Part shown: positions 1,816 to 52,664 of the stretch, piece by piece
How positions within the stretch are numbered: position 1 is the first letter of the stretch
Layout of the letters: the number at the start of each line of letters is the position of its first letter
Assembly: GCA_951406725.2 (NCBI GenBank)
Contig: OX597818.1
Span: forward strand, 110,546,001 to 110,610,000
DNA: 64,000 bases
Source of the DNA: Octopus vulgaris
Taxonomy: Eukaryota
Reading direction: 5' to 3'
Translations under genes and position numbers: made by a program
The notes under the pieces: model-generated
The model's database searches: none
Seen by the model: the letters and a program-made list of their open reading frames with translations, nothing else
What the model was told of the DNA's origin: nothing

Positions 1816-3135
1816 CTATGTATGTGTGTGTGTGCGTATGTGTGTATGGGTAGATATATTATGCATGTATATATGTGTATATATATATATGTGTACATAT
1901 TACATGTACATCTATATATATACATCTACACATAAAATACAAAATACAAAGTTATATCTTGATATCGCTAGTGATAACAATACTCAAAATATATAAGAGA
2001 CTGGAATTGCAGGCCTGTCTCTTGCAATTTCGATCAATTGGATCTTGTCCTCCCTCTTGTATAGAAGTGTACGGCTGCAGCGAAATTCATTGTTGGAGTT
2101 TCTTCTATCGAAGGCATTTCAACAAAAATGCTTCCGTAAAGACGGTGAAAATATTGTCAATTTCCCCAAACAGGGACACAATTCAATTTTGAAACAATAA
2201 CCAAAGCCCCTTCTCCGAAAGTTAGGGGGGGTTACGGTCGGTTTACAATTAGTTAACAAATGCAACACAGCAACGTTTCCCTGACGAGGAACCAACAAAC
2301 GTGATTACAATAGTCAAACAGTAATAATAATAACAACAAACCTTTTTAATTTATCCCCATTTATGTGAAAGCACTTATTCAAGTTCAAGTCATTGATGCA
2401 ATATTATACGAATTGCTAATACACACACACACACACACACACATAATAAGGGTGAAAATTTGAATATTAATTTGATTAACATGAATTGAAAACCAGTGGT
2501 GTAGCATATAAGACCATAGCAGATCTTCCTCTAGCAAAAAGGATGACCAGTATTAATGGCTCATCCCTGTTATATAAATAGTTTCACTTTAATAGTTTCA
2601 CACTTGCAAAGAGAAAGTAGGAGAAAATATGGTGGTAATAGCAGGAGTAAACCACTTGAAATGAGAGAGGCAAATCGTAAAATATTGAGTTTTCTCGAAT
2701 TTTTGCTTAATTGGGGGTCAAACTGAAAAAACTTTACATGCCATGACCCAATCGAATCTACTTGGAAAAATCATAGGTAAATTCCAATTGAAGAAATTCT
2801 TTATTGTAGAATTGTATTAAAAAGAAACATGGGAACAGGCAGAGAAAATCTGCCTTTTATCATAAGAGATATATTAAGAACAATCTTACTTAGAAATGGA
2901 TGCGTGCGTTCCGTCATATAATAAATTAATAAATAAATAAAACATATGCATATATACACACATATATGTACGTACGTACCTCCACATGTATATATACATG
3001 CATACATGGGTACAGGGCACCAAAAAAATGTCGAGCACAATGAGAAACGAAAACATAAACACAAAATCAAGGAAATGGACATTTTTTTAAACAACGAAAA
3101 AAAGAGAGAACAGGACATACAACACAAGGAAAATT

Positions 3136-3196
3136 CCCTTTCTTCAGTCGCCTTTGTTTCATCTACTCCACGTTTCGACGGTCAAGGCGATACATG
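3136..3196 (-). ncRNA. Putative non-circularly permuted hammerhead ribozyme
   Basis: Minus strand reads catGTA tcgcctt g accgtc GAAACgtg ... aaggcga CTGAAGA aaggg. Stem III catgt/acgtg, stem I tcgcctt/aaggcga; stem II is weak in this copy. Confidence 0.6.
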
Positions 3197-4146
3197 ACTT
3201 AAATGAAACAATCCTTCCCGCGAAAATCAAATTAAATAAAATTTGAGATTTTTTTGCGGAGGGGTAAAAATGGTAACAAAAGCAAGACAGAAACGACAGT
3301 ACAAAATATAAACAGTAAAAGACAGGACAAGGGCAATAACAGTAACACAAACAAGAAGGGCTGTTAAGCCGAACGAGATAAAAAATTTTACGAACGCTAT
3401 TTTTTGAGAACGGTGAGGGAGCAACAGAAAGTGCCGTCTCTACTTGAAGGTAGCCAGGACAGAAAGACAGTAGCAGATTTCTCGTCGCGGGTCAACGACG
3501 GGAGGGAGGAGGAGGAGTAAGAGAAAGGGAGAGAAAAAAAGGGAATAGTTGTAGAGAAAAGAATGAAGAATGAGAGAGAGAGAGGGAGAGGCAGTAAGGT
3601 AGAAGAAAAGGAAAGCCAAAAGAATGAAGGCTGAGAAAGGGAGGAGACAGAGAGGTTAAGAGTGCGCATCATTATTAATATTAAGAACAATCTTACTTAG
3701 AAATGGATGCGTGCGTTCCGTTATATAATAAATTAATAAATATATAAAACATATGCATATATACACACATATATGTACTACCTACCTCCACATGTATATA
3801 TACATGCATACATGGGTACAGGACACCAAAAAAACGTCAAACACAATGAGAAACGAAAACATAAACACAAAACCAAGGAAATGGACATTTTTCTTAAACA
3901 ACGGAAAAAAAAGAGAGTACAGGACATACAACACAAGGAAAATTCCCCTTCTTCAGTCGCCTTTGTAAAAAAATTCATCGCGTTCGGCTTAACAGCTCTT
4001 CTTGTTTGTGTTACTGTTATTCTCCTTGTTCTATCTTTTACTATTTATATTTTGTACTGTCGTTACTGTCCATTTTTATCCCTCCGCAAAAAAATCTCAA
4101 ATCTTATTTAATTTGATTTTCGCGGGCAGGATTGTTTCATTAAAGT

Positions 4147-4207
4147 CATGTATCGCCTTGACCTTCGAAACTTGGAGTAGATGAAACAAAGGAGACTGAA
4201 GAAGGGG
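4147..4207 (+). ncRNA. Putative non-circularly permuted hammerhead ribozyme (inverted copy)
   Basis: catGTA tcgccttg accttc GAAACttg ... aaggaga CTGAAGA agggg, with one mismatch each in stems I and III. Confidence 0.55.
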
Positions 4208-4440
4208 AATTTTCCTTGTGTTGTATGTCCTGTACTCTCTTTTTTTTTCGTTGTTTAAAAAAATGTCCATTTCCTTGGTTTTGTGTTTATGTTTTCGTTT
4301 CTCATTGTGTTCGACGTTTTTTTTGGGTGTCCTGTACCCATGTATGCATTTATATATACATATGGAGGTAGGTACGTACATATATGTGTGTATATATGCA
4401 TATGTTTTATTTATTTATTAATTTATAAATATATATATAT

Positions 4441-5072
4441 AAATTTCGGTAAGTGGTGAAGCAATTTTTGTAGAACCCTAATTATAATTATTATTATTAT
4501 AATTATAGAATTTTTGTATAAGGTTACCAATAATGATTCTTTTAACATACCGAGTTACTTGGTAAAATTATTAATTATTAATTGATTAATTAACTTTACA
4601 CTTTATTATTATTGATAATATAATTCACTCCCTGATAGCAAACTGCAGTTTCTGCGGAATTACTCGTGGCACTCGTGGGTGATTGAGGAGGAGTGCGAGG
4701 TCTCATTCGTCTGTTTGAATTCGGAAGTACTGGTTTTTGGAGATAAGCTGTTCGATGGCGCATGGTCGAATACGTATGTTAATTATTAGTGCTCTCGAAT
4801 TTAAAATTGAAATACTATACTGACGACGGGAATAAGTGAGTAAAAATATGATTTTACATCTCTTTAACTCAGAAACGCGTATATAGTTAATCAAAGCCGG
4901 GTGGATTCGTTTTTTTCCCTATTTACCTACGTGTGTTGAGAGTATTACTGTCTGACGATATCTTATGGTAGTGGAATAGTATTTAACTGTTATTTCTAAA
5001 TTTCGGTGCGTGGTGAAGCAATTTTTGCTGAACCCTAGTTATAATTATGCTTATAATTATAGAATTTTTGTA
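4441..5072 (+). mobile_element. Retrozyme-like non-coding element with terminal direct repeat
   Basis: About 75 bp direct repeat (aaatttcggt..gtggtgaagcaatttttg...gaatttttgtata) at 4441-4520 and 4998-5072. It is bounded by (TA)n and contains an internal hammerhead. Confidence 0.7.
4814..4887 (+). ncRNA. Minimal type I hammerhead ribozyme
   Basis: actata CTGACGA [long stem II with gtaaaa/ttttac] GAAAC gc GTA tatagt. Perfect 6-bp stem I, palindromic ACGCGT stem III, GUA cleavage triplet. Confidence 0.8.
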
Positions 5073-9053: not shown

Positions 9054-9064
9054 AGTGTGTGATG

Positions 9065-9550
9065 AATAAAAATATATGCATACATACAAATATATATGTA
9101 CGTACCTACATCTACATGTGTATATACATGCATATATAAATAATTATACGTGAGTACAGGATACCACAACAAGACGTAGAAACGGGAAAAACAAAAAAAC
9201 AGTTACAGGACGTGCTACACAAGGAAAAAACCCCCGTCATCAGCTGTCGCTAGTAAACTCAAGCATGTTTAGAAGGCAAGACAGAACACTAATCCACTAG
9301 GCGTTCCTGTGAGAGAATTAAAATAAAATTCCAAGCAGCGGGGCAAAATGAGTACGAACACGAACAGGACGTAAGAATAAAATTGCAAAAATAAAAATAC
9401 ATGTACAAAAAATACAAATAAATACAAAACGAGAAAATAAAAAGAGAATACGATACGGGAAATCAAACACACAAGAGGACGAACGAAAAAGCCTTTTTTC
9501 TAGCATAGACGGAAGATACTGTGGCAGCGCGTGGAAGGCAGTCTTTTCAC
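9065..9550 (-). mobile_element. Diverged member of the 2869-4430 element family
   Basis: Shares gtacgtacctacatc...tatatacatgcat...gtacagga..cacaaggaaaa with the 2940/3750 copies; flanked by (TA)n. Confidence 0.65.
9231..9290 (-). ncRNA. Putative permuted hammerhead ribozyme (G12 mutated)
   Basis: Minus strand reads agtGTT ctgtc ttg ccttc TAAACat ... gacag CTGATGA c ggggg; stem I ctgtc/gacag. Confidence 0.45.
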
Positions 9551-51944: not shown

Positions 51945-52570
51945 TGTGAATATATGGGTACAAGACATCACCAACGGTTCAAACATGAAATACGTAAACA
52001 AACGGATTAAATACATAAACAACGAGAAAAAAAAGGAGAATAGGACAAGTAAAAACAGTGAAAAACAGTTGTTGGCTGACTATCTACTCCTCATTTCGAG
52101 CATTCAACGACAATATTGGGCTTCAAAGACAGATGCTCCCATAAATTCTAAAAACAATTTGGGATTTCTAGAAGGTCAAAGATGGGAACAAAAACAGGAC
52201 AGTTGAGACATACAAGGAAACCGAACGAAAATAAACATGGAGGGTCGCTAGACCAGAACGAGAGGAAAACAGTTTATCTTCGTTCGGTTTCCTTGTATGT
52301 CTCCACTGTCTTGTTTTTGCTCCCAGCTTTGACCCTCCATAAATCCTAAATTTTATTTTAGAATTTGTGGGAGTAACTGTCTTTGAAGACTCATATTGTC
52401 GTTGAATAAGCGAAATGAGGAGCAGATAGACAGCCGACAACTGATGAAGGGTCCTTTCTCTGTGTTTGCTTGTCTTGTTTTCCATTTTTACTCGTTGTTT
52501 ATGTATTTAACCCATTTGTTCAGGTATTTCATGTTTGAAACGTTGGTGACGTCCTGTGCCCATATAGCAT
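51945..52570. mobile_element. Inverted pair of the 2869-4430 element family
   Basis: 51950-52230 is an imperfect reverse complement of 52280-52565. It shares atgggtacaagaca/gtcctgtgcccat with the 3005/4330 copies and is flanked by microsatellites. Confidence 0.75.
52390..52452 (+). ncRNA. Putative non-circularly permuted hammerhead ribozyme
   Basis: ctcATA ttgtcg ttg aataagc GAAATgag ... cgacaa CTGATGA agggt. Stem III ctcat/atgag and stem I ttgtcg/cgacaa are both perfect. Confidence 0.62.
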
Positions 52571-52664
52571 GTATATATATATATATATATATTATTTACT
52601 ATTTATTATTTAATTGAACGCCACAATTCCATTTCCGAGTAAGTTTATATATATAAATATACAG

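Follow-up and report, generated by a model that had tools for sequence, protein, structure and literature searches.

An insertion of a non-coding repeat with Penelope-like anatomy

The window, that is, the whole 64,000-nucleotide stretch of Octopus vulgaris DNA analysed here (contig OX597818.1), carries at positions 2871-4435 a single insertion of a repeat that is non-coding and has a tandem unit of ~800 bp and the anatomy of a Penelope-like element (PLE) (Table 1). The insertion is made up of a 5'-truncated tandem and an inverted copy, with TA runs at the ends. A direct repeat of 290 nt (95% identity) links 3678-3966 to 2871-3157, an inverted repeat of 468-477 nt (90% identity) links 3959-4426 to 3397-2921, and the minus strand from 3966 to 2871 corresponds to 1.36 turns of the 807-bp unit. 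Copies B and C are arranged head-to-head, overlapping by 8 nt at their junction, and both arms finish at or near TA-rich sequence. In most genomic copies, the repeat ends at the equivalent of 2916-2921 and is followed by a TA run; the extension seen in copy A recurs, up to the equivalent of 2869, at four other loci (L018, L024, L028, and L029). TA targets, partial tandems, a 5' inverted copy, and a 3' tail have been reported for PLE insertions (PMC8557442), and all of these traits are found here. The unit itself contains no credible ORF, including the RT/GIY-YIG ORF of an autonomous PLE.

Table 1. Features of the insertion and of the hammerhead motif (window coordinates).
Feature	Position	Strand	Equivalent in copy A (-)	Basis
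Copy A, one full ~807-bp repeat unit	2871-3677	-		Self-comparison of the window
Copy A 3' extension, 45 nt past the usual end (near 2916-2921)	2871-2915	-		Comparison of copies
Copy C, partial upstream tandem unit	3678-3966	-		95% to 2871-3157; 4186-4435 matches 3966-3722
Copy B, inverted, 5'-truncated, TA run at end	3959-4435	+		Self-comparison, genomic copies
Leader, putative stem II strand 10.1-10.5, family GAAGG	4126-4130	+	3213-3217	
P0 (fourth helix), 5' strand	4133-4141	+	3202-3210	Covariation
S block	4147-4159	+	3184-3196	Covariation, copy 5' ends
Stem III 3' strand (S block)	4147-4151	+		
H17 (A), predicted cut after it	4152	+	Predicted cut after 3191	
Stem I 3' strand (S block)	4153-4159	+		
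G block	4162-4174	+	3169-3181, mutated at 3179	Covariation
Stem II strand CCTTC (G block)	4162-4166	+		
G12-A13-A14-A15.1 (G block)	4167-4170	+		
Stem III 5' strand (G block)	to 4174, mutated at 4172	+		
P0 3' strand, stem I 5' strand, and core	4180-4202	+	3141-3163	
P0 3' strand	4180-4188	+		
Stem I 5' strand	4189-4195, mutated at 4193	+		
Core C3-A9	4196-4202	+		
Small hairpin right after A9, 4-nt loop variable	4203-4216	+	3127-3140, mutated at 3139	

Several other repeats were noted in the window. Broken frames of a PIF1 helicase (PF21530, PF05970; 289-1815, minus strand) probably represent a Helitron-type relic, and a reverse transcriptase fragment (PF00078; 5160-5525, minus strand) is LINE-like. 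To the right of the insertion, a different repeat forms a 67-nt direct repeat (4434-4500 and 4991-5057, 85%). There are also two further copies of the same repeat: a diverged one of the L218/L096-type subfamily at ~9057-9498 (minus strand), which retains the whole motif but has T for G12 and mutations in the leader, and a heavily decayed one at ~52304-52590 (plus strand), 67% identical to the L131 subfamily, in which the core CTGATGA is still visible.

The probable permuted hammerhead and its extent

A sequence-only reading of this DNA had recognised a permuted hammerhead at 3136-3196 (minus strand) and 4147-4207 (plus strand), together with a partial copy at about 3945-3966. All three are where that reading placed them; the partial copy comprises a core at 3950-3956 and a stem I strand at 3957-3963 (minus strand). 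Stem I of 7 bp, stem III of 5 bp, and the GUA site likewise agree with our analysis, and this part of the proposal draws support from covariation and from the 5' ends of genomic copies, both described below. In contrast, stem II was probably misassigned. The motif also reaches ~25 nt further in the 5' direction than had been thought, taking in a leader and one strand of a fourth helix, P0. The complete order of strands is leader, P0 5' strand, stem III 3' strand, NUH, stem I 3' strand, CCTTC-GAAA, stem III 5' strand, P0 3' strand, stem I 5' strand, CUGANGA, and hairpin, with the leader GAAGG lying 26 nt upstream of the predicted cut. Copy C starts 33 nt past that cut and is limited to the stem I 5' strand, the core CUGAAGA, and the hairpin.

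As had been suggested, copies A and B are mutated at different positions. When both are set against a natural copy from elsewhere in the genome (L003), copy A has changes at 3201, 3179, 3139, and 3123; those in copy B are located at 4127, 4172, 4193, and 4220. The changes in copy A amount to one stem II mismatch (3179), the others falling outside the core stems, whereas copy B has mismatches in stems II (4127, in the leader), III (4172), and I (4193). Because of these lesions, the window's own copies are probably weakened or dead. The 61-nt consensus obtained by merging them is a natural sequence, present unchanged in 14 of the 28 other top-scoring genomic copies, but the reconstruction was needless, given that intact copies exist (e.g., L003 at 1542-1661, L002, L007-L009, and L011); 9 of the 28 retain the leader and P0 as well. 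A synthetic RNA starting at catGTA, as had been proposed for a cleavage assay, would lack the leader and one P0 strand and would likely yield a false negative, so that failure to cleave, which was to count as refutation, could be recorded for a real ribozyme. An Rfam scan of the window at gathering thresholds gave no matches. We also considered a hammerhead of canonical order downstream of CUGAAGA and rejected this possibility, since GAAA is absent after the hairpin.

Copy number, core conservation, and covariation

Copies of the motif are present in the genome by the thousands, more than expected by chance. A pattern combining the leader, G block, and core has at least 3468 exact matches compared to 0 for a reversed control, a pattern of the G and C blocks has 2225 matches (6 in the control), and a 21-mer downstream of the motif has at least 5394 exact matches (0 in the control). 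For the motif region, a first look at the 2.8 Gb genome returned at least 2446 candidates. Direct repeats with a period of ~750-824 nt occur at many loci and in several subfamilies. As in retrozymes, the non-coding units are arranged in tandem with one ribozyme motif each. One subfamily (e.g., C1, 19839076-19839155) is near-identical and apparently young, and has stem I cut to ~5 bp.

From the collected loci, we obtained 189 distinct full motifs. The hammerhead core CUGANGA and GAAA is present, although its constancy is inflated because copies were chosen on those very motifs, with only N7 left free. N7 is A, T, G, or C in 97, 87, 3, and 2 copies, respectively. H17 is A in 66, C in 64, T in 55, and G in 1 copy (3 gaps), and U16.1 is T in 187 of the 189 copies; both of the latter positions lie outside the selection pattern. 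H17 and N7 are variable, as they are in hammerheads. The NUH triplet at which hammerheads are cut, placed between stem III and stem I, is found here too. All hammerhead core letters are present, the blocks follow the order S-G-C, and the linker between the stem I 3' strand and the stem II strand is short (2-3 nt), as is typical of type-SGC hammerheads. When stem II is built with the leader, its closing pair R10.1-Y11.1 is G-C in 177 of 189 copies.

The 189 motifs were clustered into 28 groups, and the natural medoids of 24 were aligned to a model comprising stems I and III, P0, a stem II formed with the leader, and the hairpin that follows A9; deletions and decayed singletons (L112, L328, and two L144 copies) were left out. 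In this alignment, 92% of the 739 cells are paired and 16 of 31 pairs have changed on both sides, a number reached by 2 of 500 shuffles; because the sequences are related by descent, these figures are not probabilities. Slid alignments pair in ~45-49% of cells. Changes on both sides are concentrated in P0 (8 of 10 pairs), stem I (4 of 6), and stem III (3 of 5), with one of five pairs in stem II. The post-A9 hairpin is predicted in most representatives and paired in 95% of cells, with none of its five pairs changed on both sides.

The partner of CCTTC

There are three candidate partners for the CCTTC strand: GGGG following A9, a GAAGG overlapping G8 and A9, and the leader GAAGG. The sequence-only reading had paired CCTTC with AGGGG after CUGAAGA and offered the G8/A9 register as an inactive fold or switch. 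The first of these pairings demands an inserted A, has two G-U among four pairs, and displays no compensatory change. The second, which is 99% paired in the representatives, is equally devoid of compensation, and in the rows of a subfamily in which CCTTC is replaced by CGTTC it contains a G-G mismatch that falls behind a gap in the alignment. The leader pairing is fully Watson-Crick and alters in step in that subfamily: when position 11.4 is G (CGTTC), position 10.4 is C (leader GAACG) in 26 of 39 genome matches, one of them a chance chimera, compared to none of the 100 matches listed (of 3468) when 11.4 is C. Within the family, this compensation concerns one pair and probably represents one event; inside the CGTTC subfamily alone, the linkage (9 CG, 6 GC, 4 GG, and 2 CC; n = 27) is not significant (p = 0.08). 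On the available sequences, the upstream leader is the most likely partner of CCTTC, rather than either of the registers put forward earlier. Since this evidence favours a stem II strand upstream, block C, which in type-SGC hammerheads continues into a stem II strand 1-2 nt past CUGAnGA, appears to be broken here. Similarly, the helix joining stems I and II is not formed with sequence 3' of block C, as in that type; the equivalent helix, P0, is built with sequence 5' of the S block.

Independent support comes from a second motif family that has no blastn similarity to that of the window (312 genome matches, 0 in the control). It has the same strand order, with a stem II (GACAC/GTGTC) formed with the leader, and no good stem II partner after CUGAUGA. 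By eye, this family matches the 3' ends of the octopus PLEs Naiad_Obim and Naiad_Ovul in the supplement of PMC8557442, and the 3' end of Naiad_Esco parses alike, albeit with an imperfect leader pairing (4 of 5). Naiad_Ovul and Naiad_Esco are labelled there as HHR_half_core; in that account, Naiads have no canonical hammerhead but only eight such half-core cases. We did not find a Naiad ORF adjoining or upstream of the motif in 40 loci of the genome, so it is from the published consensus that this family takes the Naiad label. Comparison of the repeat with these 40 loci by blastn revealed no similarity, apart from one neighbouring insertion, even though the wiring is alike. A second Naiad-type subfamily (L355-L358) bears the motif followed by different downstream sequence.

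Proposed topology and predicted folding

In the type-SGC hammerhead HRIMA-1, a single A separates the 10.x strand from a helix made with the strand that precedes stem I (PMC10085705). The window motif is laid out likewise: the leader is succeeded by an A and by P0, whose partner strand also precedes stem I. This like order suggests that stems I and II meet the fourth helix in a like junction. The motif can, therefore, be viewed as an SGC fold closed at its ends and circularly re-cut between A9 and G10.1. We infer a three-way junction in which P0 ties together the far ends of stems I and II, and an accompanying sharp bend of P0 away from stem III. Judged against the kink-turn consensus, a kink-turn signature is clear in the Naiad-type family and partial in some subfamilies; for the window's own subfamily, a kink-turn was rejected, the signature being absent (12 of 17 rows scanned).

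Nested folding predicts P0 with stem III and local hairpins, without stems I and II (z = -0.57). This would be expected for a pseudoknot, but it also points to a real risk of misfolding. Most local folds include a conserved downstream stem that would block both stem I and the core, but because in only 1 of 17 cases does it beat shuffled sequences at p < 0.05, we regard it as a compositional competitor rather than a selected switch.

5' ends of genomic copies

If the RNA is cut, reverse-transcribed copies might be expected to begin near the cut site. The first 100 of the 5394 matches to the 21-mer located ~135 nt downstream of the site were mapped against natural reference copies; removal of 13 whose alignment did not include the anchor left 87. 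Of these 5' ends, 31 fall at -1 to +21, 10 at +22 to +130, 4 at -100 to -2, and 13 at -200 to -101. Within 23 nt on either side of the predicted cut boundary, 31 ends lie after it and 1 before, and the hazard at -1 to +21 is ~17-20-fold higher. A second set of 98 motif-anchored copies, slightly overlapping the first, has 20 ends at -1 to +11 and 6 at -24 to -2. The peak is at +6/+7, not at 0, and of the 77 copies at risk, 46 continue past the site. The simplest reading of the pile-up is run-off of the RT from cut RNA, the displacement to +6/+7 being due, perhaps, to incomplete copying or to microhomology with TA; a start site or an RT stall could also produce such a pattern. Among 20 Naiad-type loci, 2 begin at 0 and +6 relative to the predicted cut.

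Proposed mechanism and the mobilising partner

Collectively, these results make it probable, as far as can be judged from sequence, that the insertion belongs to a high-copy, non-coding, Penelope-like repeat with a likely self-cleaving hammerhead of SGC order, the stem II of which is completed by the leader. With the chain open between A9 and G10.1 and the leader strand completing stem II from upstream, tandem or read-through transcripts would fold into a four-strand hammerhead and be cut after GUH, giving RNAs of unit length. A Penelope-like RT/GIY-YIG protein acting in trans would then prime at TA runs and copy these RNAs. On cut RNA, the RT would run off near the cut end, whereas on uncut, re-closed, or circular RNA it would read through and generate copies longer than one unit, such as A plus C.

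Candidates for the GIY-YIG moiety are abundant in the genome (6136), but no repeat copy joined to a coding element was found among the loci inspected (L001-L060 and L091-L150). PLE coding fragments adjoin five loci (L011, L016, L039, L045, and L047) in inconsistent orientations, and L050 has a weak RT-like match. Neptune-type and 781-aa Penelope-like parents were considered and rejected: the motif forms their own 3' end in 0 of 30 GIY-YIG and 0 of 30 Neptune-type loci, which seem by eye to bear degenerate cores of canonical order. Young Penelope-like families, one of which has a 781-aa frame and many copies, end by eye in minimal canonical-order hammerhead look-alikes with U3/A8 replacing C3/G8 (L072, L086, and L071 at ~2670-2710, 2670-2710, and 2360-2400, respectively; L039 at ~3120-3170). 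At L039 (1126-1341 and 2191-3240), a copy with its 5' part inverted lies beside an inverted-type Neptune-like insertion at the same TA run.

Alternative explanations

The main challenge to a leader-built stem II is an ordinary type-SGC hammerhead with a CTTC/GGGG stem II and one inserted A, in which the leader would be an off-switch sequestering CCTTC. We regard this as rather unlikely, even though the register is 97% paired in the 24 representatives. An extra A at the post-A9 position is known from a viroid hammerhead. HRIMA-1 tolerates a one-base insertion there, namely a U after A9, and block C would remain intact, as PMC10085705 assumes. Against this, the two G-U pairs persist in nearly all representatives, no pair is altered on both sides, and stem II would shrink to three pairs in the CGTTC subfamily. 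Moreover, covariation links the strand preceding stem I to the leader region and not to sequence after block C, and neither the Naiad-type family nor Naiad_Esco (PMC8557442) offers a usable partner after CUGAUGA.

Less probable still is a fold that is real but non-catalytic in vivo, for instance, a protein-binding or RT-recognition element, with the pile-up caused by an internal start or an RT stall and the core possibly shut by the G8/A9 GAAGG register. The +6/+7 peak, the ~60% of copies that read through, the near-complete pairing of that register, and a minimum free energy fold without stems I and II would all fit. However, only N7 and H17 vary, in keeping with hammerhead rules, the pile-up halts at the predicted cut, the 99% pairing masks the G-G mismatch of the CGTTC rows, and an unrelated family keeps both core and order, with two of its loci beginning at or near the cut. 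Finally, the core could assemble in trans or across tandem units as a dimeric hammerhead, in the manner of minimal Penelope hammerheads. Units do occur in tandem, amphibian retrozymes are reported to show dimer-dependent cleavage (PMC7229834), and a link in cis from P0 to stem III is geometrically demanding; but all strands lie within ~80 nt, joined by linkers of 1-3 nt that suit a single molecule, units are ~800 nt apart, and published SGC ribozymes of like connectivity cleave co-transcriptionally (PMC10085705), so we consider dimeric assembly very improbable.

Implications and comparison with known systems

With somewhat less assurance than for the family itself, we favour the broader view that thousands of animal retro-repeats have as their active ribozyme a four-strand hammerhead opened in its catalytic core, the entire element body forming a loop between A9 and G10.1. 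In this view, it is also the overlooked ribozyme of cephalopod Naiads, it breaks the three-block permutation rule, and its cleavage in the germ line has left a record in genomic 5' ends. Owing to the pile-up of 5' ends, the part that cleavage plays in transposition can be tested directly, and engineers of split or switchable ribozymes would gain a new point of insertion from a core that tolerates a strand break. The leader-completed wiring is not described in the openly accessible literature that we searched (including PMC13725137 and PMC6155905).

Type-SGC hammerheads, that is, HRIMA-1 and its variants (Eckert et al. 2023; PMC10085705), were described from metatranscriptomes only, with none reported from genomes of known organisms, whereas the window motif, with its SGC order, resides in an animal genome repeat. 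The two share the S-G-C order, the short linker between stems I and II, a fourth helix tying these stems, and the full core. In type-SGC hammerheads, however, block C (stem I strand, CUGAnGA, and stem II strand) is continuous, and PMC10085705 assumes that CUGAnGA is inseparable from its stem II strand, an assumption that the window motif appears to break: its S block comes after both the predicted stem II strand and one of the two P0 strands, and A9 runs into a hairpin. Metazoan non-LTR retrozymes (Cervera and de la Pena 2020, PMC7229834; Li et al. 2026, 10.64898/2026.07.22.740005) resemble the repeat in that non-coding units, each with a single hammerhead, are arrayed in tandem, copies are dispersed, and a dependence on PLEs has been proposed, but they carry a type I hammerhead in units of ~170-400 nt, as opposed to SGC order and a period of 750-824 nt, which sets the repeat apart from that class. 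The permutation of the window motif is non-circular and is missed by type I descriptors; the 2026 preprint (Li et al., 10.64898/2026.07.22.740005) screened type I motifs only. Naiads (Craig et al. 2021; PMC8557442) share with the repeat TA targets, partial tandems, a 5' inverted copy, and a 3' tail, and the published 3' ends of octopus Naiads have, by eye, the same wiring; in contrast to them, the repeat has no ORF, nor is it similar in sequence to the Naiad-type family present in this genome. If correct, our reading would explain the Naiads with half cores only in PMC8557442, which served as a basis for doubting that PLEs need a hammerhead.
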